Assembly: GCA_016180435.1 (NCBI GenBank) | Contig: JACPBG010000002.1 | Span: 144,682-208,681, forward strand | Reading direction: 5' to 3' | DNA from: Candidatus Sungiibacteriota bacterium | Lineage (GTDB): Bacteria > Patescibacteriota > Minisyncoccia > Sungbacterales > HO2-52-23 | DNA: 64,000 nucleotides | Shown: positions 1,222-20,196 of the stretch, in pieces | Layout of the letters: each line of letters opens with the position of its first letter | How positions within the stretch are numbered: the stretch's first letter is position 1 | Translations under genes and position numbers: made by a program | Notes under the pieces: generated by a model | Database searches by the model: none | Told to the model about the DNA's origin: nothing | What the model saw: only the letters and a program-made list of their open reading frames with translations

Positions 1222-1290
1222 ATATTCTTGGTCTTCGTTAATCTTTCGGTTAGTTTTTCGAATAAATTAATAAAATTGGATATAGATATC

Positions 1291-3750
1291 ATGCAAATTT
1301 TATTTTCCCATCCTTCTTTTATCATGTTCGGTGTTGCACTCACTGTATTTGCGGCCTTATTTTTGTTGCGCTCCCTGCTTTTGAAAAAGGGACTTATCTC
1401 CCGTTCGTTAAACCTTGAACTCTTGCTGGTGCGTTTTCCGCCGCCGCCATCTATCGGTCCGTCCCAACAGGAGCCATCGCTCCAGCAAGTTCGCGAAAAG
1501 ATCGCTTTGATGGAGCAGTTATATGTTCAGCTTTCATATATAAAGGATTCGTGGTTTCACTCATTATTATACGGCGAGCCGTCAATTGCCATGGAACTTA
1601 CCATTCCGCATATCGGGGAGGAAATTACTTTTTACGTGGCTGTGCCGCGCCGATTTGGACAGGCCGTGGAGAAAGTGATCCATGGAACTTTTCCCGAAGC
1701 GCATGTGGAGCCGTCACGCGACTACAATATTTTTCATCCGGATGGGGCAACGGCTGCGTCCCGTATGATGTTGCGCCCGAATATTTTTTATCCCATTCGT
1801 ACTTACCAAAAATTGGAAGGGGATCCCCTGCGCGCGATTACCAATGTTTTTACCAAACTTGCGCGGGAGGGGGAGGGCGCGGCTTTGCAGGTGGTGGCGC
1901 GTCCGGCGCATTATAAATGGCGGCGGCGCCTGCGTGAGCGGGCGCATAAAATGCAGGAAGGAGAAAGATACGAGGAAGATAAATTAATGCGCGTTTTGAA
2001 AACAGTGATAGATACGGCCAGCGAGGCGGCCAAAACCGAGCAGGATAAGCCCAAAGAGCAAAAGCGCCTTACTCCGCTTGAAGAGGAAATGTTAAAATCT
2101 CTTGAATCCAAGGCCGGTAAAGCCCTTTTTGAAGCGAATATACGCCTGGTGGCATCTGCTCCGACCGAGCGCCGGGCGCGGGAAATTTTGGATGCCCTGG
2201 AAGCCGCTTTTGGACAATTTGAAGACCCGAATCTTGATGCGTTTCGTAGTGAGCGGCCATCCGGATCGGCATTTAAAAATTTAGTATTTAATTTCTCGTT
2301 CCGCAATTTTGACGATAAAAAATATTCGGTTTTAAGCGTAGAAGAATTAACTTCAATTTTTCATTTCCCGAACGTGGCGTTGGAAACGCCCAAAGTAAAA
2401 TCTTTGAAAGCGCGCGAGGCGCCTCCGCCGCCCAATCTCTCTCCGGACGGGCTGCTTTTGGGTTACAATCTTTTCCGCGGAACTTCATCGGATGTGCGTC
2501 TCCTGGAAGATGATCGCCGAAGGCATTTATACGTTATCGGACAGACCGGCACCGGAAAAACAGCGTTTTTAAAAAATCTGGTGGTGCAGGACATTGAAGA
2601 CGGCCACGGGGTATGTTTTATCGATCCGCATGGCGATACGGTCGAGGAACTGCTCGGCATGATCCCGCGCCATCGCCTGCAGGATGTGATTTATTTTAAT
2701 CCCGGAGACGTGGCGCGTCCTTTGGGATTGAATATGCTTGAATACGACTCCAACTATCCGGAACAAAAAACATTTATCGTCAATGAGCTTTTCGGAATTT
2801 TCCAGAAATTATACGGCGCGGTTCCCGAGGCGCTGGGTCCTATGTTTGAGCAATATTTCCGGAATGCCACCATGCTGGTCATGGACGACCCGGCGTCCGG
2901 AAATACTCTGCTTGAAATTTCCCGTGTTATGTCGGATAAAACATTTCGCGATCTTAAAATTTCGCGCGCCAAAAATATCATAGTTAAAAATTTTTGGACC
3001 CAGATCGCGGAAAAAGCCGGCGGAGAAGGGGAACTTCGCAATATGGTCCCTTATATCACCTCTAAATTTGACGTATTTTTGGCAAACGAGATTATGCGGC
3101 CGATCGTGGCGCAGGAAAAATCATCATTCAACTTTCGTGAAGTTATGGATAGCGGGAAAATTTTATTAGTTAATCTTTCCAAGGGGCGTTTGGGCGATAT
3201 TAATTCTGCCTTGATCGGGCTTATTATAGTAGGAAAAATAACCATGGCTGCGCTTTCGCGCACCGATGTGGCGGATCCGGAGCGGCGCCGGGATTTTTAT
3301 CTATATATAGACGAATTTCAAAACGTTACCACGGATTCGATTGCCACTATTTTTGCCGAGGCCCGCAAATATCGGCTGAATCTGATTGTGGCGCATCAGT
3401 ATATCAAGCAGTTGACCGATAACATTCGGAATGCGGTTTTCGGAAATGTGGGATCGCAGGTGGCGTTTCGCATTGGTTCGGATGACGGAGAATTCATGGA
3501 AAAACAATTTATTCCGGTTTTTAAAGCCGCGGACTTGCTGAATGTGGATAATTATAACTGTTATGTTAAACTTCTTTTAAGGGGACAAACCGCGCCCCCG
3601 TTCAGTTTAAAGACCTATCCTCCGAAAAAAGGCAATGCGGAGATAGCTGCGGTGGTCAAGGAAATTTCCCGCACTAAATTCGGCCGTCCCCGCGAAGAAA
3701 TTGAGAAAGAAATTATGGAGAAACATGAGAGTCAGCTAATCAACGAATAA
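1291..3750 (+). CDS. TraG/TraD/VirD4-family (type IV coupling protein-like) P-loop ATPase with an N-terminal TM segment
   Basis: ATG at 1291 lies in frame within track ORF 1228..3750. Hydrophobic N-terminus FIMFGVALTVFAALFLL. Walker A YVIGQTGTGKTAF. Walker B-like LYIDEFQNV followed by LNLIVAHQYIKQL, matching the DEF...QS/HQ..QL pattern of TraG/VirD4 family proteins. Confidence 0.6.
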   Translation: MQILFSHPSFIMFGVALTVFAALFLLRSLLLKKGLISRSLNLELLLVRFPPPPSIGPSQQEPSLQQVREKIALMEQLYVQLSYIKDSWFHSLLYGEPSIAMELTIPHIGEEITFYVAVPRRFGQAVEKVIHGTFPEAHVEPSRDYNIFHPDGATAASRMMLRPNIFYPIRTYQKLEGDPLRAITNVFTKLAREGEGAALQVVARPAHYKWRRRLRERAHKMQEGERYEEDKLMRVLKTVIDTASEAAKTEQDKPKEQKRLTPLEEEMLKSLESKAGKALFEANIRLVASAPTERRAREILDALEAAFGQFEDPNLDAFRSERPSGSAFKNLVFNFSFRNFDDKKYSVLSVEELTSIFHFPNVALETPKVKSLKAREAPPPPNLSPDGLLLGYNLFRGTSSDVRLLEDDRRRHLYVIGQTGTGKTAFLKNLVVQDIEDGHGVCFIDPHGDTVEELLGMIPRHRLQDVIYFNPGDVARPLGLNMLEYDSNYPEQKTFIVNELFGIFQKLYGAVPEALGPMFEQYFRNATMLVMDDPASGNTLLEISRVMSDKTFRDLKISRAKNIIVKNFWTQIAEKAGGEGELRNMVPYITSKFDVFLANEIMRPIVAQEKSSFNFREVMDSGKILLVNLSKGRLGDINSALIGLIIVGKITMAALSRTDVADPERRRDFYLYIDEFQNVTTDSIATIFAEARKYRLNLIVAHQYIKQLTDNIRNAVFGNVGSQVAFRIGSDDGEFMEKQFIPVFKAADLLNVDNYNCYVKLLLRGQTAPPFSLKTYPPKKGNAEIAAVVKEISRTKFGRPREEIEKEIMEKHESQLINE

Positions 3751-3840
3751 CGAATCCAATACGAATTTACGAATAAACGAATGGTTCGATACTGCTCACC
3801 ATAAATTCGTATATTCGTAAGCCATTCGTAATTCGTAGAT
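3751..3840. repeat. ACGAAT/ATTCGT-rich imperfect palindrome (family copy 1), beginning CAACGAATAACGAAT across the stop codon of the upstream gene
   Basis: Left arm acgaataacgaatccaatacgaatttacgaataaacgaatgg approximately pairs with right arm ccataaattcgtatattcgtaagccattcgtaattcgt. The same CAACGAATAACGAAT motif recurs at 26744 and 41981. The 3' end ATTCGTAGATA...ATTATG resembles the 3' end of the nrdD-splitting copy. Confidence 0.6.
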
Positions 3841-3849
3841 AAAGTTATT

Positions 3850-4452
3850 ATGATTTCTAAACTTGATTATAGTATCGCCGCCCTGATAGGATTTTTAGCC
3901 GGAGTTTTTTTGATCCCCACGCTTATTAACGTGGGATTGCGCACTCAATGGATTTTAATGATCATTCCGCTTGTGATTCCGCCGGTGTTTGCTTTGGGTG
4001 TGTGGATTTCCGGCATACTTGCGCGCCGACTCGCTTTTATGGCGCAGTTCGGAAAATTTGTGGCCGTCGGGTTTTTGAATACTGCGATTGATTTTGGGAT
4101 TTTGAATTTATTGAGTATGGCCACTGGCATTACTTCCGGGTTTGTGATCGGCGGCGTGAATGCCCCGGGTTTTGCAGTTGCCGTCATAAATAGTTATTTC
4201 TGGAATCAGTTGTGGGTTTTCAAAGGCAAGAATGCTGGAGAGGGAATGTTCCATGATTTTCCAAAGTTTTTGACTGTTATGCTGATCGGACTTGCTATAA
4301 ATAGCGGCATAATTTTTGCGCTGACAACATATATCATGCCTCCCTTCGGATTGGGGGAAACTTTGTGGCTTAATGTTTCTAAGGCGTTTGCCACCATATT
4401 TGTCCTGGTTTGGAATTTTCTCGGCCTCAAGTTTTTGGTTTTCAGACCGTAA
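3850..4452 (+). CDS. GtrA-like polytopic membrane protein
   Basis: Several TM helices. The segment FGKFVAVGFLNTAIDFGILNLL matches the GtrA-family signature KFxxVGxxxTxIDxxxLxxL. Confidence 0.5.
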   Translation: MISKLDYSIAALIGFLAGVFLIPTLINVGLRTQWILMIIPLVIPPVFALGVWISGILARRLAFMAQFGKFVAVGFLNTAIDFGILNLLSMATGITSGFVIGGVNAPGFAVAVINSYFWNQLWVFKGKNAGEGMFHDFPKFLTVMLIGLAINSGIIFALTTYIMPPFGLGETLWLNVSKAFATIFVLVWNFLGLKFLVFRP

Positions 4453-4603: not shown

Positions 4604-5308
4604 ATGGTCAGGTTGATATCGGTTTTGGTACTGTTCTCAACAAGTTTTATCTTCACAGATTCATACGCCCTTCAAGATCGCTCGTTGAAAGCCGGAGTTT
4701 ATTATATGTGGCGGGATGATCCTTTTGCCGTTAAAGCCGGAGAAGAGAATGTTTTGCGCGCAAAATTACGCCAAGAAGTTTCCAGCGCCTTTTCGCGTTT
4801 GGGATCCGGCATTGACATATCTTTTGTAAAAGTTCTGCCCGAAATTCAATTTGATTATCTGGTTTTAGGAAAGGGGGAGATCCGTGGAATATCTCCACGT
4901 TCATTTTTCCTGGCCGCGCGTTCGAATGAAGATGTTTTGCTTGATTTAGAAAGCGTGGATTTCTTATTTGTTTTTACCTGGGATTTTATCATACAGCGCT
5001 GGATGGATTCGGGTTTGGTCGAAATTGATTCACAAGAGAGTATTATAGGCGCGGTGTATGTTTCCTTGGGCGGTATCACGGAACATGGCGGCAAAATTTC
5101 TCTGATCCGTTTTGATGAAGACGCCATGCTTTTGCAAAACCGCATTATGCACGAATCGGGACACCTTTTGGGGCTTGCTGATAAAGATAAGGTGCTTTGC
5201 AAATTCAGTTTGACGATCATGTGTTGGCCGGTAAAGCCGCAAATGGAGATAGGGGATGAGATCAAGATCCGTTTGAATGAATATATAGCAGAAAAACCGC
5301 TTCCTTAG
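4604..5308 (+). CDS. Secreted HExxH-motif protein, putative zinc metallopeptidase
   Basis: ATG at 4604 (MVRLISVLVLFSTSFIF, signal-like) lies in frame within track ORF 4562..5308. IMHESGHLLGLADKD resembles a HExxHxxGxxD metzincin-like site. No other homology recognised. Confidence 0.4.
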   Translation: MVRLISVLVLFSTSFIFTDSYALQDRSLKAGVYYMWRDDPFAVKAGEENVLRAKLRQEVSSAFSRLGSGIDISFVKVLPEIQFDYLVLGKGEIRGISPRSFFLAARSNEDVLLDLESVDFLFVFTWDFIIQRWMDSGLVEIDSQESIIGAVYVSLGGITEHGGKISLIRFDEDAMLLQNRIMHESGHLLGLADKDKVLCKFSLTIMCWPVKPQMEIGDEIKIRLNEYIAEKPLP

Positions 5309-5378: not shown

Positions 5379-6587
5379 ATGAGCGAATTGGTTTTATATA
5401 GAAAATATCGTCCGCGCGAATTTGACGAGGTCGTGGGGCAGGATCATGTGGTGGATTCTTTGCAAAATGCGTTTCGCACTAACCGCGTGGCGCATGCTTA
5501 TTTATTTTCCGGTCCGCGCGGAGTGGGCAAAACCACGGTGGCTCGGTTGATTGCCAAGGCCTTAAATTGTGCCAATTTGTCCAAAATTTCTGGAGGAAAT
5601 TTTGTCGACAAATTGAGCATCTCGCCGAAGCCGCATGGCGGCGAAGGCGGATTACCTATGCCCTGCAACGCGTGCGATTCTTGCCGTGATTTTAATGAAG
5701 GCCGGGCGCTGGATGTGATTGAAATCGATGCGGCATCCAGCCGCGGGATTGATGATATTCGGGAGCTCCGCGAAGGAGTGCGTTTTGTTCCAACCCGCAG
5801 TAAATTCAAAACCTATATTATTGACGAAACCCACATGCTGACCAAAGAGGCGTTCAATGCGCTTTTAAAAACCCTGGAGGAACCGCCTGGCCACGCCGTA
5901 TTTGTGCTCGCCACCACCGAACTTGATAAAGTTCCGGCAACTATTGTTTCGCGCACCCAGCACTATGATTTCCGCAGGCCGTCGGTTGCGCAAATTGCCG
6001 AGCGCCTTGCGGGCATTGCTAAAAAAGAAGGAGTGGCGCTTGATCAGGATGCTGCGCGTTTAATTGCGCTTGCGGCCGAGGGTTCCATGCGCGATGGGGA
6101 ATCCATTTTGGGTCAAATCATGGCCGCGGAAGATAAAAAAATAACCCGGGTTGAGGTTGAGCGAATTTTAGGGCTTCCCAAGCGTGAGGCGGCCAAGCGT
6201 ATGTTTGAATTGATTGCCGAAAAAGACGCATCATCAGCCCTTTCGCTTATTCAGGAACTGCATGATGCCGGGCACGATTTGCAGTATTTTTCCAAATTGC
6301 TATTGCAGTATTTCCGCAACGCGCTTTATTTAAAAACCGATCCTGAGCTTTTACGTTTCGTGGAAAATGAATTGTTGCCGGATGAGATTGAGGCGATCAA
6401 AGTGCATCTTACAAGTTATGCCGTTGCTGATCTTGCCAGAGGCGCGGATGTGATTTTTTCTAACCTCCAATCCTTCAAAAAATCACCAATCCCGCAACTT
6501 CCGCTTGAACTTACGGTGCTGGAACTTATGGGTGGAAGAGGGGAGAAGATAGAATCCGTTACGCTGTATCAGACCAAGCCGAAATAA
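5379..6587 (+). CDS. dnaX: DNA polymerase III subunit gamma/tau, short form
   Basis: YRPREFDEVVGQDHVVDSLQNAFRTNRVAHAYLFSGPRGVGKTTVARLIAKALNC shows the clamp-loader Walker A. Zn module C-x2-C-x2-C (CNACDSC). SRC-like motif and the IIDETHML box are present. Confidence 0.9.
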   Translation: MSELVLYRKYRPREFDEVVGQDHVVDSLQNAFRTNRVAHAYLFSGPRGVGKTTVARLIAKALNCANLSKISGGNFVDKLSISPKPHGGEGGLPMPCNACDSCRDFNEGRALDVIEIDAASSRGIDDIRELREGVRFVPTRSKFKTYIIDETHMLTKEAFNALLKTLEEPPGHAVFVLATTELDKVPATIVSRTQHYDFRRPSVAQIAERLAGIAKKEGVALDQDAARLIALAAEGSMRDGESILGQIMAAEDKKITRVEVERILGLPKREAAKRMFELIAEKDASSALSLIQELHDAGHDLQYFSKLLLQYFRNALYLKTDPELLRFVENELLPDEIEAIKVHLTSYAVADLARGADVIFSNLQSFKKSPIPQLPLELTVLELMGGRGEKIESVTLYQTKPK

Positions 6588-6597
6588 TTTATAACAC

Positions 6598-6655
6598 AAA
6601 AATGTCATACTTACAAACTTGAGAATGTTGGTATGTTAAGGGTGTGCTGAATAGT
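6598..6655 (+). pseudogene. hsdS-derived fragment: a ~50-nt copy of the inter-TRD region of hsdS lying just downstream of dnaX
   Basis: acacaaaaatgtcatacttacaaacttgagaatgttggtatgtt matches hsdS nt ~17105-17155, with a 22-nt exact core atacttacaaacttgagaatgt. It would encode HTYKLENVGML versus HTYKLENVRMF in hsdS. Confidence 0.45.
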
Positions 6656-6681
6656 GTTCGAGCTTGTCGAGAACATACCTT

Positions 6682-6795
6682 ATGCGCAAACGCTATAAAA
6701 AGAAACGGCATAGTTGCGCGCTTTGTAAACCCCATAAAATGGGAGGAGATCACCGTTGGAAGGGGAAAGAGCTTGCTGGCTTGAAAGTATTTGAA
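6682..6795 (+). CDS. Possible 36-aa basic CxxC...H small protein (MRKRYKKKRHSCALCKPHKMGGDHRWKGKELAGLKSI); may be non-coding
   Basis: Short ATG-initiated ORF between the hsdS fragment and tRNA-Gln. Lys/Arg-rich with a C-x2-C-x2-H-x5-H pattern. Too short to validate. Confidence 0.2.
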
Positions 6796-6824
6796 AAAGA
6801 AAAGAATAGTTTTTTATAAATATT

Positions 6825-6898
6825 GCCGGGTCGTCTAACGGTAGGACAGCGGCCTTTGAAGCCGTGAATGAGGGTCCGATTCCTTCCCCGGCAGCCAT
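6825..6898 (+). tRNA. tRNA-Gln (anticodon UUG), CCA encoded
   Basis: Manual fold: acceptor TGCCGGG/CCCGGCA (7 bp), D arm GTC-TAACGGTAG-GAC, anticodon arm GCGGC-CTTTGAA-GCCGT with UUG at positions 34-36, 4-nt variable loop, T arm GAGGG-TCCGATT-CCTTC, discriminator G, then CCA. The T-loop TCCGATT is slightly atypical. Confidence 0.7.
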
Positions 6899-7150
6899 CC
6901 TGTGACCCCTACCGAGACGGGTCATGCGCCACAAGCGCTGGCCCGTCAAGGTAGCAGGGAAACGCGGATTCTGGCAAGATGTAACCCATCTTGTACTCGC
7001 AGTTTTGGAGAGAAATTCAAAGTATTTCCACGAGTCGCAAAACTCGTCACCACCACGTCATACCGGCTGAGCGCTCGCCTCGCTGAAGCTTGGCGCAGCG
7101 GGCCGTATTCAAGAACGAAAAGTCCGTCCTTCGACAAGCTCAGGGCGGCT
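6899..7150 (+). repeat. Noncoding element R1 (~240 nt), homologous to R2 at 17877..18120; a possible structured RNA or island-boundary repeat
   Basis: Shares CC(T/G)ACCGAGACGGGT (6908-6922 versus 17882-17896) and an exact 17-mer CCTTCGACAAGCTCAGG (7128-7144 versus 18099-18115) at nearly the same spacing (216 versus 213 nt). The interior is diverged but alignable. Overlapping small ORFs are in different frames in the two copies. Confidence 0.45.
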
Positions 7151-7223
7151 TTTCGTTTAAAAAATGGCCTTATACAATAAGTTGCCCTTGATTTTGAAAA
7201 GTGCTATTATGGCATTATTAAAC

Positions 7224-7261
7224 GTTTCACTTTTTCTACAATATGGTAGAAAAAGTGAAAC
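7224..7261. promoter_or_regulatory. Perfect 16-bp inverted repeat (GTTTCACTTTTTCTAC-aatatg-GTAGAAAAAGTGAAAC) upstream of abiEi; candidate operator
   Basis: A perfect palindrome about 130 nt upstream of the AbiEi start. It is preceded by TTGCCC-17nt-TATTAT promoter-like hexamers at ~7186-7214. Confidence 0.35.
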
Positions 7262-7393
7262 GGGTAATTTTTACCCAGCTAGAGGTTCGGAATTGGACGT
7301 TGATTTAAAATAAGATATAAAGCGAAAACGGCTTACGCCCTGCATTATAAGTTAAAGAAAGACGACTTTAAACCTCTGACTGGGCTTACTAAT

Positions 7394-8020
7394 ATGGCCA
7401 AGAAATTACAAAGAATAGAAGTTGAAGAAAAGCTTAAAAACCTCGGGCTTACAGTGTTTACGCCCCGGGAATTTCAAGGCATCTTTGGTGTGTCAAAAAA
7501 ATCCGTTTCCATGTTTATTTTAAACAATGTAAAAAGCGGTTTATTTGTGAAATTGCGCAATAATTTTTACGCAATCAAAGACAGTAATCCCGATTATTTT
7601 TTTATTGCCAATAAATTATATCAGCCCTCGTATGTATCTCTGGAAACCGCCTTATCGCATTATAAAATTATTCCCGAGGTGGTTTACGGCACTTCTTCTA
7701 TTACCACCAAAGCGCCTCGGGAATTCAAAACTCCGCTAGGCAATTTCACCTACCGGCACATTAAAACCGAAGCATTCACGGGTTATCGGCTGCAAGAAAT
7801 TGACCGATATAATGCGCTGTTTGCAGAACCGGAGAAGGCCCTGGCGGATTATTTATATTTTGTCGACCTTAAAAAGACATCGCTCAATGACCGGTTAAAA
7901 TTAAAGAGTATAAATAAGCCCAAATTGATTGAATATGCCAAGTTGTTTAAACGTAAAAGCATATTCAAACTTATCAATCAAATTTATGCTGACTCGCGCC
8001 AACCTCGAACAATTTACTAA
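7394..8020 (+). CDS. AbiEi-like antitoxin/transcriptional regulator (type IV TA/Abi system)
   Basis: N-terminal wHTH-like segment; GLFVKLRNNFYAI fits the AbiEi G.l.rl.rG.Y.l pattern. Overlaps the downstream AbiEii nucleotidyltransferase gene. Confidence 0.55.
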   Translation: MAKKLQRIEVEEKLKNLGLTVFTPREFQGIFGVSKKSVSMFILNNVKSGLFVKLRNNFYAIKDSNPDYFFIANKLYQPSYVSLETALSHYKIIPEVVYGTSSITTKAPREFKTPLGNFTYRHIKTEAFTGYRLQEIDRYNALFAEPEKALADYLYFVDLKKTSLNDRLKLKSINKPKLIEYAKLFKRKSIFKLINQIYADSRQPRTIY

Positions 8021-8720
8021 GCAATCCCAAACCAAGCTGGAAAATGTTGTCAGGGAATACTGCCAGCATTTGTTTTTGTCGTATTTGTATCAACAGCCGG
8101 GTTCTGAACGGCTGCTTTTTAAAGGCGGCACGGCCCTGCGTATCATTTTTCATAGTCCACGTTATTCCGAAGACCTCGATTTTACCGCAATTAAAATTAC
8201 CCGACATGAAGTTGAGGAACTTTTCGTTAATACTTTGGCGAACATAGAAAAAACCGGTATCCATGTCGGGTTTACAGAAGCCAAGCGGACAGCAGGCGGG
8301 TATTTGGGAATAATTGAGTTTAATATTTATGGCAAAATAGTTGAAGTTTATTTTGAAGTTTCTTTGCGAAATGGCAGGAGTATTGCCGGGGTTAGGCAGT
8401 TTATTGAGAACGATTATATTCAACCCTATACCTTAGTATCTTTATCCAAAGAAATTCTTGTGCAAGGAAAGCTGGCAGCACTTACGGCCCGGCACAAGCC
8501 CAGGGATTTTTACGATTATTTTTTTCTCCTGTCGGGCAATTATCCTGTTGTAAAAGAAAAAGGAAATCTTATCAGGGCTCTTAAGCTGTTGCGGGAGTCA
8601 AAAATTAATTTTCGCGTTGAACTGCGGGAATTTTTGCCGGCAAGCCACTTAATGCATTTGCGGAACTTCAAAAAAATTTTGGAACAAAAAATTCTGGATT
8701 TTATGGGCAAAAAATCATGA
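7986..8720 (+). CDS. AbiEii/AbiGii-family nucleotidyltransferase toxin (DUF1814)
   Basis: LLFKGGTALRIIFHSPRYSEDLDFTA matches the family signature KGGTAL....R.SeDiDf. Internal ATG at 7986 (MLTRANLEQ) within track ORF 7929..8720. Stop TGA overlaps the next start (ATGA). Confidence 0.75.
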   Translation: MLTRANLEQFTKQSQTKLENVVREYCQHLFLSYLYQQPGSERLLFKGGTALRIIFHSPRYSEDLDFTAIKITRHEVEELFVNTLANIEKTGIHVGFTEAKRTAGGYLGIIEFNIYGKIVEVYFEVSLRNGRSIAGVRQFIENDYIQPYTLVSLSKEILVQGKLAALTARHKPRDFYDYFFLLSGNYPVVKEKGNLIRALKLLRESKINFRVELREFLPASHLMHLRNFKKILEQKILDFMGKKS

Positions 8721-8866
8721 AAACTTCCAATTTGCTTAATTGTCATCCGAACACTTTGCGGCAGTGGGATAGGAAAGGTATTTTAGTTGCCGTGCGTTTC
8801 GGCGAGCGAAAAGACCGGCGTTATCGGAAGGAAGACATCCTCAAACTAATTTCCAAGCAAAAATGA
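8717..8866 (+). CDS. Small MerR/excisionase-family HTH protein (49 aa)
   Basis: MKTSNLLNCHPNTLRQWDRKGILVAVRFGERKDRRYRKEDILKL fits the HTH_17 pattern (hp.TirrW.r.G.l.a.R...g.RRY...di). ATGA overlaps with both the upstream AbiEii stop and the downstream radC start. Not in the ORF track (<60 aa). Confidence 0.6.
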   Translation: MKTSNLLNCHPNTLRQWDRKGILVAVRFGERKDRRYRKEDILKLISKQK

Positions 8867-9531
8867 AAATAAAGGATTTACCAAAATCAGATAGGCCGCG
8901 AGAGAAGCTTGTGGCTAAAGGAGCCGAGAATCTTAAGGACTCGGAGCTTTTGGCTATTCTTTTGCGGACCGGCAAAGCTGGGAAAAATGTCATTGAAATC
9001 GCTTCGCAGATTTTAGCCAAGCATTCCAAAAAGCGGCTCTTGCAAATGACCTATCAGGACCTGGTAAAAATCGGCGGCATTGATTCGGCAAAGGCCACAA
9101 CGCTTCTGGCCGCCTTTGAGCTCGCAAAACGCGCCCTGGAAGTGAATGACACGAATTTACCGACCATCGTTACCCCTAAAGATGTCGTGGCTCAACTGGC
9201 CGAGTTGCGCAATAACAAAAAAGAACATTTCATTGCTTTGTACCTCAACGCCAGAAACCAACTGGTTCATAAAGAAACAATTTCAATGGGTACCTTGAAT
9301 GCCAACCTAGTCCATCCTCGAGAAGTTTTTGAACCGGCACTTAAGCATTCGGCCGCCAGCATTATGGTTGCGCATAATCATCCTTCCGGTGATTCAAAGC
9401 CGTCGGAGGACGATTTGGAAATAACAAAGAGATTAGTAGAAGCTGGCAAGTTGATGGGGATTGAAGCAGTAGACCACATTATTATTACCAAAAACACCTA
9501 TCTTAGCTTCAGAGGAGAACGTTTGATTTAA
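8863..9531 (+). CDS. radC: RadC-like JAB/MPN-domain protein
   Basis: HhH N-terminal region; JAMM motif HNHPSGDSKPSEDD near the C-terminus. Confidence 0.85.
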   Translation: MKIKDLPKSDRPREKLVAKGAENLKDSELLAILLRTGKAGKNVIEIASQILAKHSKKRLLQMTYQDLVKIGGIDSAKATTLLAAFELAKRALEVNDTNLPTIVTPKDVVAQLAELRNNKKEHFIALYLNARNQLVHKETISMGTLNANLVHPREVFEPALKHSAASIMVAHNHPSGDSKPSEDDLEITKRLVEAGKLMGIEAVDHIIITKNTYLSFRGERLI

Positions 9532-9535
9532 ACCT

Positions 9536-11905
9536 ATGCCCAACTTTTCTAAAAAAGAATTTTCCGAGCAGGATATTTGTTCAAAATTCATTCTTCCGGC
9601 GCTTACAAACGCCGGCTGGGATTTACAGAAGCAAATCCGCGAGCAGTATAGCTTTACCGCCGGTCGGATTATCGTGCGCGGCAAAACCGTTTTTCGCGGG
9701 GAGAAAAAACGCGCCGATTTTGTTTTATATCATCGCGGCCATCTCCCGCTCGCAATTATTGAGGCCAAGGATAATAAACATCCCGTCGGCGCCGGAATGC
9801 AGCAGGCACTTGAATATGCCGAAGCGCTTGATATTCCTTTTGTCTATAGCGGGAATGGCGACGCGTTTCTTGAGCATGACCGCCTTGTGAAAACTGAGCC
9901 CATTGAAAACGAGCTCCCATTAAACGAATTCCCGTCTCCAGACGCGCTTTACAGCCGTTATGTGAAAGCTAAAGGACTTGCCGCCGAGCAGGAAAAAGTA
10001 ATCAGTCAGGATTATTATCAGGAGATTGACGGCAAGTCGCCCCGCTACTTCCAGCAGGTTGCGATTAACCGCGCCACCGAAGAAATCGTCAAAGGTAAAA
10101 ACCGTCTGCTTTTGGTGATGGCCACCGGCACCGGCAAAACCTACGCCGCGTTTCAAATCATCTGGCGTTTGTGGAAAGCCGGAGTTAAAAAGCGGATTCT
10201 CTTTCTGGTGGACCGCAACATTTTGGCTGATCAGCCGATTATGAATGACTTCCGACATTTTGGCGACAAGATGACTAAAATTCAGCATCGCCAAGTTGAT
10301 AAGTCATACGAAGTGTATCTTGGTTTGTATCAGGGGCTAACCGGAATGGAAGAAGAAAAAAACATATTCAAGCAGTTTTCACCGGACTTCTTTGATTTGG
10401 TTATTGTTGACGAGTGTCATCGCGGAGCGGCGCGCGAAGACGCTTCTTGGAGAGAAATTCTTGATTATTATAAAAGCGCCACCCAAATCGGTTTAACCGC
10501 CACTCCCAAGGAAACTGCCGATATTTCAACCCAAACCTATTTCGGCGAACCGGTATATACCTATTCGCTCCGGCAGGGCATTGAAGACGGCTTTCTTGCG
10601 CCCTACAAAGTTATTCGCGTTACTTTGGATAGAGACGCGGAAGGATATCGCCCCACGGCTGGCGAGGTTGATAAATATGGCAACCCACTGCCTGATCAGA
10701 TTTTCGGCCAGAGCGATTTTGACCGCAAGCTTGTGCTGGAAGAGCGCTCAAAAGTCGTTGCGCAAAAAATTACCGAATATCTCAAAGCCACTGACAGGAT
10801 GCAAAAGACCATAGTATTTTGCGTGGACACCGAGCACGCCGACCGCATGCGTAAAGAACTTGTGAACGCTAATGCCGATCTCGTGAGTGAGCACCCGAAT
10901 TATGTCGTTCGCATCACCGGCAACGACGAGCACGGCGTAAAAGAACTTGATAAATTCATTGATCCCGAAAGCCCGTATCCAGTTATCGCCACCACTTCAA
11001 AGCTTCTTACCACTGGCGTAGATACCCAAACCGTCAAACTAATTGTCATTGACCAGAATATCAACTCAATCATTGAATTCAAGCAGATTATCGGCCGCGG
11101 CACGCGCGTGCGCGAGGATTACGGCAAGATGTTTTTTACCATTATGGATTTTCGCGGCGCGACCGAGCTCTTTGCCGACCCGAAATTTGACGGCGATCCG
11201 GTGGTCATTTACAAAACCAAAGAAAAAGGGCCGATTGTGCCGCCCGAAGAAAAAGACGGAGGAACAGAAATCGGCCCCGAGGAGAAACCCATTATTGAAT
11301 ACGGCCCGCCGGGAACCGGCGTCGGCATCGTCCGCGACGAGCCGAAAAAATATTACCCCTTGGGCGTGGAAGTGAAAATAATCCACGAGCGCGTGCAGTA
11401 TATGGACGAGCGCGGCAAACTTATCACCGAATCGCTCAAGGACTACACCAAGCGAAACATTCTGCAAAGCTACGCATCGCTCAACGACTTTTTAACCGCC
11501 TGGACTAAGACCGAACAAAAAGAAGCAATCCTCAAAGAGCTTGAAGATCGCGGTGTATTTTTTGCCGAGCTTTCTGCCGAAGTCGGCCGGGACTTGGACA
11601 CCTTTGACCTTGTCTGCCATGTGGCTTGGGGCAAAAAGCCGCTCACGCGCAGCGAGCGGGCGGAAAAGGCGCGCAAAAAAGATTACTTTGCTAAATACGA
11701 AGGCAAGGCGCGCGAAGTTATTGAGGCGCTCCTCGCTAAATACGCCGATCAGGGCATCACCGCCATTGACGACATCGGCGACTTGCAGGTTTCGCCGTTT
11801 GACCAATTCGGCACGCCGTACCAAATCGTCAATGACATCTTCGGCGGCCGCGAAAAATACCTCACGGCAGTTAAAGAGGTCCAGCAGGCGCTCTACGTGG
11901 GTTAG
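9536..11905 (+). CDS. hsdR: Type I restriction enzyme R subunit
   Basis: HsdR N-terminal PD-(D/E)xK nuclease (FILPALTNAGWD...ADFVLY...IEAKD). Helicase motif I LLLVMATGTGKT and motif II VIVDECHRG. hsdM and hsdS lie downstream. Confidence 0.85.
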   Translation: MPNFSKKEFSEQDICSKFILPALTNAGWDLQKQIREQYSFTAGRIIVRGKTVFRGEKKRADFVLYHRGHLPLAIIEAKDNKHPVGAGMQQALEYAEALDIPFVYSGNGDAFLEHDRLVKTEPIENELPLNEFPSPDALYSRYVKAKGLAAEQEKVISQDYYQEIDGKSPRYFQQVAINRATEEIVKGKNRLLLVMATGTGKTYAAFQIIWRLWKAGVKKRILFLVDRNILADQPIMNDFRHFGDKMTKIQHRQVDKSYEVYLGLYQGLTGMEEEKNIFKQFSPDFFDLVIVDECHRGAAREDASWREILDYYKSATQIGLTATPKETADISTQTYFGEPVYTYSLRQGIEDGFLAPYKVIRVTLDRDAEGYRPTAGEVDKYGNPLPDQIFGQSDFDRKLVLEERSKVVAQKITEYLKATDRMQKTIVFCVDTEHADRMRKELVNANADLVSEHPNYVVRITGNDEHGVKELDKFIDPESPYPVIATTSKLLTTGVDTQTVKLIVIDQNINSIIEFKQIIGRGTRVREDYGKMFFTIMDFRGATELFADPKFDGDPVVIYKTKEKGPIVPPEEKDGGTEIGPEEKPIIEYGPPGTGVGIVRDEPKKYYPLGVEVKIIHERVQYMDERGKLITESLKDYTKRNILQSYASLNDFLTAWTKTEQKEAILKELEDRGVFFAELSAEVGRDLDTFDLVCHVAWGKKPLTRSERAEKARKKDYFAKYEGKAREVIEALLAKYADQGITAIDDIGDLQVSPFDQFGTPYQIVNDIFGGREKYLTAVKEVQQALYVG

Positions 11906-11944
11906 TTGACAATCGCTTGACAATCAAATATAGATTGCTTTACA

Positions 11945-13012
11945 ATGAAGTTGCTTATGACAAATAAGGACAAAATCTTGCAATTGATTGAACAGAAAGG
12001 GAAGATTACGGCGCGTGAGATTACGGAGGTAACTGGCGTATCTCGTCAGTACGTCAATCTTGTGATTTCCGGTCTTGTTGCAGAAGACAAGGTGGTCAAG
12101 CTTGGGGGAACCCGGGGCGCTTTTTATGTTTCAAAAGCATATATCGCTAAACACCCGGAGATTGTTCCTAATACTTTAAAGAAAAGGTACATCAATAAGT
12201 CGCTCGAAGAGCACAAGGTCTTTCTAGAGATAGAGGATAAATTGTCGCAACTTAAAGATCTGCCTGAAAATGTGCGGAGTATTTTTACGTTCGCATTTTC
12301 CGAGATGTTCAATAACGCGATTGAACATTCCGCATCAAGAATTATTTCGGTGGAAGTAACGTTGCGGGGAGAATTTCTATCATTCATTGTAAACGATGCC
12401 GGTGTTGGCGTATTTCGCAACATTATAAAAAAACGGAATCTTAAATCGGAAATAGAAGCGATTCAGGACTTATTGAAAGGAAAAACTACAACCATGCCGA
12501 GAACACACTCTGGAGAAGGAATTTTTTTTACTTCCAAGGCGGGAGATATGTTTACTTTGGACAGCTTTGGCCAGATGCTCATTATTAACAATCTTACGAA
12601 TGACATTTCCGCGCGCCATGCGTCTGCCGTCAAACGCGGCACGCGGGTTATTTTTAGGATTAAAACTGACTCCGATCGCCATCTAAACGATGTTTTTAAA
12701 AAATATACCAACATCAACGATGACAGCGATTACGGTTTTGATAAGACCGAGATACGGGTAAAACTCTATACTTCGGGCGGCGTCCATATCTCTCGTTCGC
12801 AGGCGCGCAGGATTTTGGAGGGGCTTGAAAAGTTTAAGATAATCCTGCTGGATTTTGAGAACGTACCCCTGGTAGGGCAGGCGTTTGTGGATGAAATATA
12901 TCGTGTATTTCAAAATGCGCATCCGAATATTCTAATTCAGGAAGAAAATATGTCGGAAGGCGTGAAGTTTATGGTGGAGCGAGCGAAAAATGAAGCGAAG
13001 AAATCAAAATAA
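11945..13012 (+). CDS. HTH + GHKL-type ATPase (anti-sigma-factor-kinase-like) + DUF4325/STAS-like domain protein, embedded between hsdR and hsdM
   Basis: N-terminal wHTH (KITAREITEVTGVSRQYVNLVISGL). GHKL N-box EMFNNAIEH and G1 box VNDAGVGVF. C-terminal ILLDFENVPLVGQAFVDEIYRVF matches the DUF4325 signature. Confidence 0.55.
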   Translation: MKLLMTNKDKILQLIEQKGKITAREITEVTGVSRQYVNLVISGLVAEDKVVKLGGTRGAFYVSKAYIAKHPEIVPNTLKKRYINKSLEEHKVFLEIEDKLSQLKDLPENVRSIFTFAFSEMFNNAIEHSASRIISVEVTLRGEFLSFIVNDAGVGVFRNIIKKRNLKSEIEAIQDLLKGKTTTMPRTHSGEGIFFTSKAGDMFTLDSFGQMLIINNLTNDISARHASAVKRGTRVIFRIKTDSDRHLNDVFKKYTNINDDSDYGFDKTEIRVKLYTSGGVHISRSQARRILEGLEKFKIILLDFENVPLVGQAFVDEIYRVFQNAHPNILIQEENMSEGVKFMVERAKNEAKKSK

Positions 13013-13037
13013 ATATTTATAGTGAGCTTATCGAACT

Positions 13038-14516
13038 ATGTCCAACATCCAATCAGTCATCAAAAACATCCAAGATATCATGCGTAAAGACGCGGGCGTG
13101 GATGGCGACGCCCAGCGGCTCTCCCAGCTTGTCTGGATGCTTTTCCTGAAAATTTTTGATGACCAGGAGCGCGAGCGCGAGCTTATCAATCCCAAATATC
13201 GCTCACCCTTGCCCGAGGATCTCCGCTGGCGCAACTGGGCAGGCGACCCGGAAGGAATGACCGGCGACGGGCTTCTGGAATTCGTCAACAACAAGCTTTT
13301 CAAACGGCTGAAGGATTTGTCTTTTGACGAGAGCGAAGACCCTCGGGCTTTTATCGTTCGCGAGGTGTTTGCCGACAGCTACAACTATATGAAGTCCGGC
13401 ACCCTTATCCGGCAGGTCATTAACAAAATAAACGAAATTGATTTTAATAAAGCCGACGACCGTCACGCCTTCAACGACCTCTACGAACATCTGCTCAAAG
13501 AGCTCCAAAGCGCGGGCAACGCAGGGGAGTATTACACGCCCCGGCCGCTCACGCGTTTTGTGGTAGAGATGGTTTCCCCTAAACTTGGCGAAAAGGTGCT
13601 GGATCCGGCCTGCGGCACCGGCGGATTTTTGATTGACACTCTGGAATACATCCGTAAGCAGGAAATAAAAACCGCGGCGGATGAAAAGAAACTCCAAAGC
13701 CAAATACAAGGAGTAGAACTCAAGTCGCTACCATATTTATTAGCTACGACAAATATGATTTTGCACGGCGTGGACACGCCAAAGCATTTGCGCCATGGCG
13801 ACATGCTTTCCCAACCATTGCGGGAATATGGGCCGAAAGATCGCGTTGATGTGATTGTGGCCAATCCGCCATTTGGAGCCGATGTCAAAGATGGCATAGA
13901 GAAAAACTTTCCGACCGAATTCCGCACCCGCGAAACTGCCGACCTCTTTTTGGTACTTTTTATTCATCTTTTAAAACCAAACGGCCGCGCCGGCATCGTG
14001 CTTCCCGATGGCTCGCTTTTCGGCGAGGGCGTTAAAACCGCCATCAAGAAAAAACTCCTTGAAGAGTGCAATGTGCATACCATTGTCCGCCTGCCGCAAG
14101 GCGTGTTTAATCCGTACGCCGGAGTAAACACCAACCTAATTTTCTTCACCAAAGGCGAACCCACCAAAGAAATCTGGTACTACCAGCTTCCGCTCCCCGA
14201 AGGCGTCAAACAATACACCAAAAACCGCTGCATCACAGACGCAGATTTTGATCAAGTTAGAGAGTGGTGGAATAAAAGAAAGGATAATGCGCTTGCCCCG
14301 TTAGAGGCCGCGAGGGCTCGCAGCGTGTCTTCGCCTCTAATGGGGTGGAAAGTATCAATCAAACAAATCCAAGAACGAAACTACAATCTGGACTTCAAAA
14401 ACCCGAACGGCAATGCAAAACTCGTCCACAAAGACCCGAAAGAAGTTTTGGAGAGCATCGCCAAAACCGAATTCCACATTGCCAAAATTTTGGAGGAGAT
14501 AAAGAAAGAGATATGA
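13038..14516 (+). CDS. hsdM: Type I R-M N6-adenine DNA methyltransferase subunit
   Basis: SAM motif I VLDPACGTGGFL and motif IV VIVANPPFG. Contains an in-frame 50-nt palindromic repeat near its 3' end. Confidence 0.9.
   Translation: MSNIQSVIKNIQDIMRKDAGVDGDAQRLSQLVWMLFLKIFDDQERERELINPKYRSPLPEDLRWRNWAGDPEGMTGDGLLEFVNNKLFKRLKDLSFDESEDPRAFIVREVFADSYNYMKSGTLIRQVINKINEIDFNKADDRHAFNDLYEHLLKELQSAGNAGEYYTPRPLTRFVVEMVSPKLGEKVLDPACGTGGFLIDTLEYIRKQEIKTAADEKKLQSQIQGVELKSLPYLLATTNMILHGVDTPKHLRHGDMLSQPLREYGPKDRVDVIVANPPFGADVKDGIEKNFPTEFRTRETADLFLVLFIHLLKPNGRAGIVLPDGSLFGEGVKTAIKKKLLEECNVHTIVRLPQGVFNPYAGVNTNLIFFTKGEPTKEIWYYQLPLPEGVKQYTKNRCITDADFDQVREWWNKRKDNALAPLEAARARSVSSPLMGWKVSIKQIQERNYNLDFKNPNGNAKLVHKDPKEVLESIAKTEFHIAKILEEIKKEI
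14296..14345. repeat. Small palindromic element (CCCCGTTAGAGGC ... GCCTCTAATGGGG) lying inside the hsdM reading frame
   Basis: 13-nt inverted termini with one mismatch enclose a GC-rich core cgcgagggctcgcagcgtgtcttc. The termini match the CCCCGTTAGAG/CTCTAACGGGG family at 24074 and 49561. The hsdM frame stays open through it (peptide ALAPLEAARARSVSSPLMGW). Confidence 0.5.
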
Positions 14517-16015
14517 AAAATATTTTGTCTTTAAACGCAAAAGAAGCTCGGAAATTCTTTCTTAAGCACGAAAGTTATTGTAATTTTGACTTACCGCCCT
14601 ATTTCAAGTTTGATAGTATTCTAAACGACCTGTCTAATACTCTTAAAAACACGAACTTATCTAATTTTTATTCGTCAACAAAAAAGCCGTGGGACTTTGA
14701 AGATGTTAATTACAGATTAACAAGTAACAAAGACGGGAAATATGCGTGGCGACCACTTCAACTTATACATCCGGCCTTGTATGTAAACCTAGCTCATATC
14801 ATCACTGAACCAAAGAACTGGAAGGACTTGAAAGCTCGCTTTACTTTTCTAATGAGGGAAAGTCGCAATATTGAGTGTGAGGGTCTGCCAGTGATTTCTT
14901 CTTACTATAGAAAAGACCGAGCAGCACAAATAATCCACTGGGTAGATAAAGTGGAAAAAAAATCTATCAAGTATGCTCTCGCATACGATTATGTACTACA
15001 CACGGATATCACTGATTGTTACGGAGCAATATATACACACTCGATATCGTGGGCGCTACACGATAAAAGTGTCGCCAAAGACAGGCGTCATGATGATTCT
15101 CTGTGTGGTAATAAGATCGATAGACAACTGCAAGCCATGTCAAATGGTCAAACGAACGGCATTCCGCAGGGTAGCGTCCTCATGGATTTTATTGCTGAGT
15201 TGGTTTTGTGCTATGCGGACAGCTTGCTTGCACAACAAATTTCTACCATTAAAAAGTCAGAATACCGCATTATCAGATACAGGGACGACTATAGAATTTT
15301 TACGAACCATTCACAGATTGCAGAACAAATAATGAAAGAGCTTACCGATGTTCTACATAATTTAGGATTAAAAATAAGTTCCTCAAAAACCAAAGGGACG
15401 GATAAAGTAGTACATTCATCAATCAAAGAGGACAAATTGTATTGGTTTGCGCATGGACGTAATCATGATAAATTGCTCCACGAACTACTCAACATATCTT
15501 TGTTTGCGGAGAGTTTTCCTAATTCAGGTCAATTAACGATCCTGCTTAATAGCGTTTATTATAGAATAATAGATTTGTATAGAAAGGATATAAAAGAAGA
15601 TATCACAGCCCTTATTAGTGTTGCGGTTGATATTGCGTATAAAAATCCGAGGGTTTATCCAATCGCGACTGCAATCATTAGTAAGCTTATAGACTTTCTT
15701 CCAAAATCCAAAAGAGAAAAGGCAATCCAAAAAATATTACAGAGATTCAAAAAACTTCCTAACACTGGGATAATGCAAATTTGGCTGCACAGGATAACGG
15801 TTAAGCTTGGTGGAAATTATGACCATTCCGAAAGATTGTGCACAAAAGTAGTAGATCCAAACGTGAAGATTTGGAATTCTGATTGGCTGAAGACAATGCT
15901 TCGTAGAAAAATTGATATTTGTAATGTAATTGACGCAGATGAACTTATAAAGATTGGAGCCGTGATCGGTAAAGATGAGGTTGAACTATTCAAGGTTACC
16001 GACTACTCATATTAA
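14512..16015 (+). CDS. Reverse transcriptase (Abi/UG-class, defence-associated type) encoded between hsdM and hsdS
   Basis: RT motifs LHTDITDCYGAIYTHSI (motif 1-like), NGIPQGSVLMDFIAELVL (motif 4, QG) and RIIRYRDDYRIF (motif 5, YxDD). ATG at 14512 overlaps the hsdM stop (ATGA). The track's longer ORF (14345) begins inside hsdM. Confidence 0.7.
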
Positions 16016-16019
16016 AATT

Positions 16020-16526
16020 ATGCCCTACCCAACAAAAAAATTAGGAGAGAACATAGAAGACAAATCAAAAGATAGTAGAATTCTTTTTTCAATTTTAACT
16101 GGACGAAATTCGCATATATTGACTATCGTTATCGTTGGGCATTTGCTAACAGAACATCTTTTGGACAAAATTATTACTGCTAAATTTAAAAATAAGAGAA
16201 GTAACCCGAAGGAGAGTTTTTCACAAAAACTTGAGCTTCTTTATCCAATGTGGCTACCTCTATTTATTTATAAAAACATAAAACTTTTAAATGAAAGCAG
16301 AAATGACATAGCGCACAATTTGGGAAGTATTGATTATAAGCCGTTTATTTATACGCATCGGGGAGAAAAGAAAATTGTTAAAATTCCAAAAAGAAAAAAT
16401 GAAGAAAAGTTTTATTTCCGAGAACTTATCAATACCGTATTGTTTGATTTAGTAAATTATTCGTCTGATACTTTAGGTATTTCCAACGACATAGATTTAA
16501 ATATTATCTTTCGTCAGAAAAACTAA
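16020..16526 (+). CDS. Small HEPN-like (Rx4H) protein whose N-terminus duplicates the hsdS N-terminus; candidate partner of the RT
   Basis: ESRNDIAHN contains an R-x4-H HEPN-type motif. The first 10 codons (MPYPTKKLGE) and ~25 nt (ctacccaacaaaaaaa...ggaga) duplicate the hsdS start at 16528. Internal ATG in track ORF 15975..16526. Confidence 0.4.
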   Translation: MPYPTKKLGENIEDKSKDSRILFSILTGRNSHILTIVIVGHLLTEHLLDKIITAKFKNKRSNPKESFSQKLELLYPMWLPLFIYKNIKLLNESRNDIAHNLGSIDYKPFIYTHRGEKKIVKIPKRKNEEKFYFRELINTVLFDLVNYSSDTLGISNDIDLNIIFRQKN

Positions 16527-16527
16527 T

Positions 16528-17796: not shown

Positions 17797-17876
17797 TCGT
17801 CACGCCCCCGATATTAAGAAACGGAACACGAGACACCCCTTTTATAGTGTTCCGTTTATCCCATTTTGTTCAAAAA

Positions 17877-18210
17877 TAGCCCCGACCGAGACGGGTTAGG
17901 GGAGTAGCAAAAGGAGAGTCAAAAAGGCCCTAAGATACCTTATAGGCGGTCGTTCCAGACCGAAGTGGCCAGCAGCTTTTGACTATGCGAACTCAAAATT
18001 TTCAAATGAGAGGGTTCTCTCAACCACAGACCGTCAAAATGCCAAAAAGTTATTCCATGAGCTTGTCGAAGGGCAACTTTTGGGCTTATATATGTATGCC
18101 TTCGACAAGCTCAGGCAATAAAATTATAGTTTTCGGACGGTCTGTACGCCTCAACAAAATTTTCCACGACTTTTTGGGTTCAAAGCAAATCGCTTGCGAG
18201 CGCAAAACGT
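17877..18210 (+). repeat. Noncoding element R2, homologous to R1; contains a perfect 14-bp hairpin and an outer 10-bp inverted repeat
   Basis: Shared end motifs with R1 (see R1). GAGCTTGTCGAAGG (18058-18071) pairs with CCTTCGACAAGCTC (18099-18112). ACAGACCGTC (~18028) pairs with GACGGTCTGT (~18135). The hsdS terminator hairpin AAACGGAACAC...GTGTTCCGTTT lies just upstream. Confidence 0.45.
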
Positions 18211-18246
18211 GTGTGGGCTAGTTATTATTTGGTATATACTTTATTT

Positions 18247-20116: not shown

Positions 20117-20196
20117 GTGGGATTCCAGACCATGGCAGTTAGCACGCGTATGCTAAGTCAGGTGATCGAGGTATATGGGATTAAAGGGCAAAAAAC

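Follow-up and report, generated by a model that had tools for sequence, protein, structure and literature searches.

Small RNAs derived from tRNA 3' external transcribed spacers, such as 3'ETS-leuZ of E. coli, and other tRNA-linked small RNAs are the closest described counterparts of an element that we call R1, which lies in a 64,000-nucleotide stretch of a Candidatus Sungiibacteriota genome (the window), between a tRNA-Gln(UUG) gene and a defence island whose far side is marked by a second spacer, R2. Like those RNAs, R1 follows a tRNA immediately on its 3' side, and no separate promoter was detected for it; it is structured, has a terminator at its end and is more strongly conserved than neutral sequence would be. 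It differs from them in its much greater length (190–260 nt), its three folded domains and the lack of any sequence relation to known examples. To our knowledge, very few non-coding RNAs have been described in bacteria of the candidate phyla radiation (CPR).

A second point of comparison is the tRNA-linked genomic island, defence islands included. The locus shares with such islands a variable cargo directly downstream of the tRNA, which differs among the window and its relatives L003, L009 and L042, and short direct repeats at both borders. It departs from them in that no integrase was found in the open reading frames (ORFs) tested in the window, no 3' segment of the tRNA is duplicated at the distal end, and the island starts past a conserved element of ~200 nt rather than at the tRNA 3' end. 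The Pfam scans on which statements about window ORFs rest covered nearly all ORFs of at least 80 aa, excluding the giant ORFs at 27850–33096 and 42227–49477 and a few others. The relatives used for comparison were the contigs L003 to L008 (DnaX 84% identical), L009 (DnaX 73%) and L042, a Candidatus Sungbacteria contig (DnaX 71%), together with L036 and the more distant L037, which carry homologs of orf297, a gene on the distal side of the island.

The reading towards which we lean, with somewhat better than even confidence, is that a promoter-like repeat, D1a, drives a unit of a small ORF, tRNA-Gln and R1, in which R1 is a conserved, terminator-ended trailer bordering a hot spot for defence islands, and that R2 is a patchwork of dispersed modules.

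A structured element downstream of tRNA-Gln

R1 occupies positions 6898–7160 on the forward strand (~260 nt, GC content 0.58) and folds far better than shuffled sequences (z −5.6). It follows the forward-strand tRNA-Gln(UUG) gene (6824–6897, CCA encoded), which was identified by ARAGORN and by Rfam RF00005 at 57.2 bits against a threshold of 29. The same arrangement is found in L042, where tRNA-Gln(UUG) at 11405–11477 is followed directly by an R1 ortholog (11478 to ~11670) that itself folds at a z of −5.6. An nhmmer search with R1 matched L042 at both ends of the element (E 5.6e-6 and 1.9e-5), and blastn aligned window positions 6819–6953, covering the tRNA and the R1 5' domain, to L042 11401–11535 at 75.7% identity, the flanking coding DNA being 65–75% identical. 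The only other noncoding matches between the window and L042 in the blastn comparison were copies of the D1 repeat, a piece of the hsdS linker and a spacer resembling repetitive extragenic palindromic (REP) sequences. L009 carries a truncated piece of the R1 5' end ~1.5 kb downstream of its tRNA-Gln.

In the consensus structure of the window and L042 sequences, GUGAC/GUCAC closes a 5' domain, which is accompanied by a long hairpin, a middle hairpin and, at the end, a hairpin made up of an A-tract, a GC stem and a U-tract. Each of the 47 consensus pairs forms in both sequences; five of them are changed on both sides, in a compensatory manner, and ten on one side. In the window, where all these parts lie on the forward strand, the 5' domain spans 6905–7057 and includes a 17-nt motif, motif A, at 6906–6922. 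A lineage-specific insert at ~6958–7030 accounts for ~71 extra nucleotides relative to L042, the middle hairpin lies at ~7059–7110, and the terminator hairpin at 7114–7158 carries in its loop UUCGACAAGCUCAG, which is motif B (7128–7144); in L042 the loop is AUUC.

Rfam 15 was searched at gathering and E-value thresholds with the window, both island borders, L009 and L042, and the only family found was tRNA, besides a weak match to AaHKsRNA41 considered below. For R1 no family reached the gathering level and only noise appeared at E ≤ 10, and its L042 ortholog had no match. The absence of recognisable signal recognition particle (SRP), RNase P or transfer-messenger RNA (tmRNA) signatures, which a preliminary description of this DNA had reported, agrees with the lack of any such Rfam match over R1 and R2, where 6S RNA was not found either, and ARAGORN found no tmRNA. 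SRP-like and RNase P-like motifs that had been noticed by eye in R1 were rejected, because their order is wrong and the covariance models give them no support.

These features make R1 look like a conserved, structured 3' trailer RNA without an Rfam family. Because L042 has its R1 ortholog after tRNA-Gln with a different island beyond, R1 falls on the core side of the hot spot, and we read it as core genome, native and vertically inherited, not as an end of the island. The suggestion of an unannotated structured RNA family can accordingly be kept for R1, a conserved and folded element in which some pairs have changed in a compensatory way and for which Rfam has no match; it could not be extended to R2, which a profile of the R1 family misses.

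R2 and its relation to R1

R1 and R2 had been taken for homologous noncoding elements of ~240 nt with conserved ends, conserved spacing and, in R2, strong internal secondary structure. The ends, the spacing and the fold are borne out by measurement. Motif A (CCCCnACCGAGACGGGT) is 16/17 identical between 6906 and 17880, in direct orientation, and includes CCGAGACGGGT, which is exact at 6912 and 17886; for motif B (CCTTCGACAAGCTCAGG), the sequences at 7128 and 18099 agree at 17/17 positions and a further, inverted copy lies at 18056–18072, and none of 100 shuffles gave any match. The distance from A to B is 216 nt in R1 and 213 nt in R2, and R2 folds at a z of −5.2, most of the fold being due to a palindrome the arms of which are 47 nt long. 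The claim of homology along the whole length failed: the interiors cannot be aligned (global z 1.1 and local z 1.2 against shuffles), and a profile of the R1 sequences from the window and L042 has no match on R2 at E ≤ 10.

One way to account for these observations would be that R1 and R2 are paralogous genes of a single unannotated structured RNA family, in which the end motifs are conserved and the interiors diverge freely. The folding of both elements well beyond shuffles and the presence of both terminal motifs in matching order and spacing would be expected from such genes, but the unalignable interiors and the failure of the R1 profile on R2 would not. The motifs, moreover, play different parts in the two elements, since B is the terminator loop in R1 and a stem arm in R2, and A, which in R1 supplies the 5' strands of two helices, stands in R2 without the partner strands. 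The L042 ortholog lacks B and has ~150 nt from A to its terminator, so that B and the spacing are not defining features of the family, and the fold of R2 is mostly one REP-like palindrome. Taken together, we consider paralogous RNA genes very unlikely.

R2 (~17880–18145) is better described as a mosaic spacer than as a copy of R1, with three apparent components. At its start lies the copy of motif A (17880–17896, forward strand, 16/17 identical to 6906–6922), which would be a piece of the R1 5' stem. It is followed by module M (17920–17985, forward strand), of which ~60 nt (17920–17979) match two intergenic sites in L009, 12755–12822 and 13419–13482, with nhmmer E values of 1.7e-4 and 2.8e-8. 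The remainder is the REP-like palindrome at 18026–18145, without strand assignment, the 47-nt arms of which are 79% complementary and have CCATGAGCTTGTCGAAGG and CCTTCGACAAGCTCAGG as core arms. No consensus RNA structure was found for a unit of A plus M, and neither R1 nor R2 had a match among plasmid records. A decayed half of tRNA-Gln was considered as a source of module M and set aside as unproven, the tRNA-Gln covariance model scoring at most 6 bits and on the wrong strand.

A one-gene cassette in L009 is bracketed in the same manner as the window island, with A and a hairpin on its left and A, a spacer and module M on its right. This bracketing is the best hint that short modules of this kind mark recombination borders.

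Motif B as a REP-like repeat

REP sequences and bacterial interspersed mosaic elements (BIMEs) are the described repeats that motif B resembles most: it is short, multi-copy, intergenic and hairpin-forming, often occurs as inverted pairs past genes and is unannotated in sequence records. Classical REPs are species-specific, whereas the 11–17-nt core of motif B (GAGCTTGTCGA) is almost the same in distant phyla; a further difference is that, in the window genome, small hairpins have this core as their loop.

At up to one mismatch the core occurs six times in the window, against 0.64 expected, and all these copies are the apices of intergenic hairpins after genes or units. Hairpin sites with this core in the window are 6657–6675, 7122–7150, 13019–13039, 18056–18115, 26780–26800, ~3790–3810 and ~54757–54817; the first, on the forward strand, is a mini-hairpin of the form GTTC-GAGCTTGTCGA-GAAC, a REP-like conserved loop with the B core in inverted orientation. 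Elsewhere such sites were found at L003 9234–9250, at L042 400–428 and in loci L011 to L021, and the same arms recur in Sphingomonadaceae, Polaromonas, Chloroflexota, Actinomycetota, KSB1 and Methylotuvimicrobium, mostly as inverted pairs of CCGTTCGnnCTGAGCTTGTCGAAG and CTTCGACAAGCTCAGnnCGAACGG. Megaplasmids of Sphingobium hold 10–20 copies each, with no annotated feature beneath them. Occurrence at many unrelated loci, which the preliminary description had held to speak against its view of R1 and R2, is thus seen for the 3' motif B alone, at many loci in many phyla. We read motif B as a REP-like palindromic unit, for which conservation across phyla is unusual.

The weak Rfam match, to RF02901 (AaHKsRNA41, a candidate small RNA of Aggregatibacter), lies on the R2 palindrome and reaches 28.5 bits (E 9e-4) against a gathering threshold of 97 bits. 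The inverted arms UGAGCUUGnCGAAG and CUUCGnCAAGCUCA are common to this RNA and the palindrome; only these hairpin arms match, and the rest of the family is unaligned. No REP-associated transposase (RAYT; Y1_Tnp) was found in the window ORFs tested, and a Y1_Tnp ORF in L042 has no match to the B loop near it at up to one mismatch. Genome representatives of GTDB, JGI metagenomes and IMG/VR were scanned with the pattern A, 185–215 nt, B, exact motifs being required. The matches obtained came from unrelated GC-rich organisms and had the 5' motif inside coding DNA; they were rejected as chance pairings with the abundant B. String searches of the literature with the motifs and their translations gave nothing relevant.

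In addition, long imperfect palindromes with arms rich in ACGAAT/ATTCGT surround REP-like loops at window positions 3745–3850 and 26740–26850. They follow an ORF resembling a type IV secretion system (T4SS) coupling protein (DUF8128/TrwB, 1228–3750) and nrdD, respectively, and have a 104-nt stretch in common at 76% identity, seen via L001 and L002.

A dispersed repeat upstream of the tRNA and inside hsdS

Type I systems with phase-variable hsdS genes, such as the SpnD39III ivr locus and hsd of Mycoplasma pulmonis, share with the window a type I system, an additional ORF with a partial hsdS-like start, and repeats in which hsdS takes part. They differ in that the window has no inverted repeats within hsdS genes, no silent cassettes of target recognition domains (TRDs) and no adjacent recombinase, and in that its repeat is a dispersed intergenic element.

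A stretch of ~50 nt just after dnaX had been described as a mid-gene fragment of hsdS with an exact core of 22 nt. The match itself is real: positions 6593–6637 and 17118–17162, the latter inside hsdS (16528–17796), are direct repeats of 45 nt with 84% identity, and their exact core, CATACTTACAAACTTGAGAATGT, is 23 nt long. Its interpretation as a gene fragment did not survive. In the HsdS translation the repeat falls outside the conserved regions of hsdS, in a non-canonical linker of ~45 residues that joins the central conserved helix to the beginning of TRD2, and the copy after dnaX has its ortholog in an intergenic stretch of L003. This copy, D1a (6593–6644, forward strand), is a dispersed, partly palindromic, promoter-like repeat of the form CTTACA-N16-TGgTATGTT and is 88% identical over 52 nt to the spacer after dnaX in L003 to L008, where no hsdS was found within 10 kb of it.

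Two further D1 copies in L003, inverted relative to each other, flank an ArsR-type HTH_5 gene, and one copy in L042 adjoins an HTH_24 gene, both of these being small genes for winged-helix regulators. Six copies from three genomes align over ~50 nt, and four of the six sit 30–65 nt upstream of a gene or tRNA. D1 is therefore likely to be a dispersed promoter- or operator-like repeat, and D1a is likely to be the promoter of the unit formed by the small ORF, tRNA-Gln and R1.

The hsdS inter-TRD linker (17071–17162, forward strand) consists of a palindrome at 17071–17100 and the second copy, D1b, at 17118–17162. Positions 17074–17101 are 93% identical to L042 19963–19990, inside the HTH_24 gene, and positions 17117–17153 are 89% identical to the D1 copy of L042; because of the match inside the HTH_24 gene together with D1b, we read the linker as a relic of a module made of a winged-helix gene plus D1. 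The similarity between hsdS and the dnaX spacer would then arise because hsdS holds, between its TRDs, a relic of the dispersed D1 repeat, the dnaX spacer itself containing no piece of hsdS.

Had the stretch after dnaX been a silent hsdS piece used for swapping TRDs, as in phase-variable type I systems, its 45-nt similarity to the inter-TRD region would be explained, and a second repeat, of 25 nt at 92% identity, which joins ORF183 of the island to the 5' end of hsdS, would add to the picture. The repeats, however, are direct and not inverted, the stretch holds no TRD-coding sequence and runs for 20 codons before a stop, it is kept in L003 with no hsdS nearby, the ORFs tested include no recombinase gene, and D1 copies stand in contexts unrelated to hsdS. 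Such shuffling appears highly improbable.

A defence-island hot spot beyond R1

The island (7394–17796, forward strand) was delineated by Pfam and by PADLOC (AbiP2 1e-189, AbiEi 2e-44). Its genes, all on the forward strand, are in order AbiEi, AbiEii, a MerR/HTH_17 ORF (49 aa, 8717–8866), RadC, HsdR, an HTH-HATPase-DUF4325 protein, HsdM, an Abi-P2 reverse transcriptase, ORF183 and HsdS. In the type I operon, the Abi-P2-class reverse transcriptase and the 183-aa ORF (14513–16526) separate hsdM from hsdS. ORF183 starts with the hsdS codons YPTKKLGE, encoded by the 25-nt repeat (16024–16048 and 16535–16559, 92% identity), a pattern that would suit the insertion of a cassette at the 5' end of hsdS. 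The Abi-P2 class of reverse transcriptases works without a template RNA. A retron and a diversity-generating retroelement were considered and rejected on the class assignment of the reverse transcriptase (PADLOC 1e-189); for the latter, in addition, the seven differences between D1a and D1b are not limited to adenines, and the interiors of R1 and R2 are unrelated.

tRNA-Gln is kept downstream of dnaX in L003, L009 and L042, and what lies downstream of tRNA-Gln differs in every relative examined. In L042 the island after tRNA-Gln and R1 (11740–20400) encodes Fic, RhuM-Fic, an NgoFVII-type endonuclease and a LexA-fused C5 methylase (type II restriction–modification), Vsr and OLD/AAA_15, and it begins past the R1 terminator, not at motif A. 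The OLD/AAA_15 gene of this island is apparently split by a Y1_Tnp (IS200-like) ORF. No synteny downstream of tRNA-Gln is shared with L003 or L009, the nearest other relatives (DnaX at most 84% identical). Exact-protein look-ups of DnaX, AbiEi and orf297 for an island-free site returned only contigs identical to the window, all with the island.

The left border would thus be ordinary core genome with a small transcription unit of D1a, a gene of 45 aa, tRNA-Gln(UUG) and R1, in which R1 would be transcribed with tRNA-Gln and persist as an RNA. The hot spot would begin directly past the R1 terminator, each lineage holding different cargo there; in the window this cargo would be AbiE, RadC, type I restriction–modification and the Abi-P2 reverse transcriptase.

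Origin of the repeats at the island borders

The motifs common to both borders had been ascribed to a scar left by island integration or hsdS shuffling, a proposal that found no support, given the native and dispersed nature of D1, the assignment of R1 to the core, the lack of a recombinase in the ORFs tested, the lack of a distal tRNA fragment and the direct orientation of the repeats. A more specific form of it is that a circular element with an A-type core recombined at motif A past tRNA-Gln, in a site-specific or Campbell-type event, leaving 17-bp direct repeats around an island of 10,974 bp; the interior of R1 would then be island-borne and that of R2 old native sequence. Motif A does bracket the whole island in direct orientation at 16/17 identity (6906 and 17880), B lies at nearly equal distance from each A, the single-gene cassette of L009 is likewise bracketed by A copies, the variability of the region downstream of tRNA-Gln is of the expected kind, and the 49-aa HTH_17/MerR ORF of the island resembles an excisionase. 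The relation to L042 is the opposite of what is predicted, however: its native R1 is orthologous to the sequence after the left A, not the right A, and its island starts past the R1 terminator and not at A. Nor does the R2 interior resemble R1, and neither an integrase nor another recombinase was found among the ORFs tested. Blastn and the tRNA-Gln covariance model found no fragment of tRNA-Gln at the distal border, and repeat A begins 9 nt past the tRNA and is not a tRNA 3' segment. We regard integration at motif A as unlikely.

At the other extreme, R1 and R2 might share no history, B having arrived through scattered REP-like hairpins, A being a chance or convergent match and the spacing a coincidence. 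Elsewhere in the window, hairpins of the B type do follow five or more other genes or units, and the different distance from A to the terminator in L042 indicates that the spacing is unconstrained. A 16/17 match between two regions of ~400 nt, on the other hand, has by our estimate a chance of ~5e-4, the expected number of motif A matches at up to three mismatches is 0.18 for the whole window, and the same order with spacing equal to within 3 nt adds further improbability. Complete independence of the two elements is distinctly unlikely.

Some recombination or conversion between the two island borders is likely, because simple decay does not give near-identical A and B, almost equally spaced, with unrelated interiors. 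The A and B repeats flanking 10.97 kb would accordingly reflect past recombination at the hot spot.

Neighbouring features

The gene that anchors synteny on the left is dnaX (5379–6587, forward strand; Pfam DNA_pol3_delta2, 4e-41), a core gene for DNA polymerase III gamma/tau with homologs in Candidatus Sungbacteria. Between D1a and tRNA-Gln lies the ORF of 45 aa (6682–6819, forward strand), which is basic, contains a CxxC motif and has no Pfam family. Its product (MRKRYKKKRHSCALCKPHK...) has 13 homologs with 56–81% identity in other CPR bacteria, in unrelated neighbourhoods, and we take it to be a real small gene for a small conserved protein family without a Pfam model. As an anchor for finding close strains it was of no help, its homologs occurring only in unrelated contexts.

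Between R1 and abiEi, a palindrome at 7217–7268, without strand assignment, has 26-nt arms that are 88% complementary with no spacer; it is terminator-like and could serve as a bidirectional terminator or as an operator of the AbiE pair. Distal to the island, orf297 (18211–19104, forward strand) is a core-like gene, and its homologs in L036 and L037 have tRNA-Gln(CUG) before them.

Several observations concern the tRNA-Gln loci of the relatives. Upstream of tRNA-Gln(CUG), L037 (9680–9830) and L036 (95–235) carry a GC-rich element of ~150 nt, the first 18 nt of which (TTAATGATTCGGGGATCG) are also those of the tRNA gene and which includes GTCTAACGGTAG; it appears to be a tRNA-derived or interrupted tRNA-like sequence. 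Right after dnaX, L037 has a tandem array of GGTAGATTGGTAGAGTGGTAGTT-like units (4720–4850). The tRNA-Gln locus of L003 (11300–11850), as that of L004 to L008, is scrambled and contains a 25-nt 5' tRNA fragment, a small GIY-YIG-like ORF and an intact tRNA, to which L003 alone adds a second partial tRNA copy (11701–11769, 47 bits). A 3' fragment of the window-type tRNA-Gln lies at L003 11782–11849, and a comparable 3' remnant is found in L009 ~65 nt past its tRNA.

In several samples, public Logan contigs matching the window at 100% identity have one of their ends at 6608–6634, 7061, 7148 or 17197, that is, at or next to D1a, in the 3' part of R1, just past motif B or 35 nt past D1b. These ends fit repeat-induced assembly breaks or strain variation, and those at 6608–6634 are consistent with D1 being repeated elsewhere in the genome.

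Discussion

The proposal of a D1a-driven unit with R1 as its conserved trailer, and of R2 as a patchwork, has to be set against several observations that weigh on the other side. Conservation of R1 comprises two full sequences and one fragment, and with two sequences the test of covariation is a weak one, in which 28/500 shuffles did as well; the alignment of the middle hairpin between the window and L042 is also uncertain. A promoter scan did not list D1a. The scans of GTDB representatives, JGI metagenomes and IMG/VR returned no further A...B element, a negative result that, exact motifs having been demanded, says little on divergent relatives of R1. The near-equal A-to-B spacing and the near-perfect copies of A and B, as opposed to interiors that cannot be aligned, are left unexplained by a pure mosaic. 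Finally, R1 could be conserved as DNA instead of as RNA, for example as a recombination target.

A bolder extension would make R1 either an undescribed structured RNA of Sungbacteria-type CPR, released from the tRNA-Gln(UUG) precursor and conserved for its action in trans, or a recognition platform that directs defence islands to the hot spot, their borders being cut and joined at motif A. Use of motif A as the cut-and-join sequence of the borders would account for the lone copy of A on the distal side of the island. We offer both forms tentatively and consider that they are probably not correct.

The weight we give to the preferred reading of R1 as a trailer bordering the hot spot is moderate, the family comprising two to three members known at the level of sequence, and if R1 is merely a spacer that bears a terminator, the locus is an ordinary one. 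Two of the motifs that might have served as signatures are dispersed repeats, one of them, the GAGCTTGTCGA hairpin, being common to distant phyla and apparently unannotated, and such repeats can mislead the calling of island borders and of RNA families. R1 itself is a concrete candidate for testing, a conserved structured element of 200–260 nt, tied to a tRNA, at the edge of a defence-island hot spot, and it may serve as a sequence marker with which to find variable defence cargo in the fragmentary assembled genomes of CPR bacteria.

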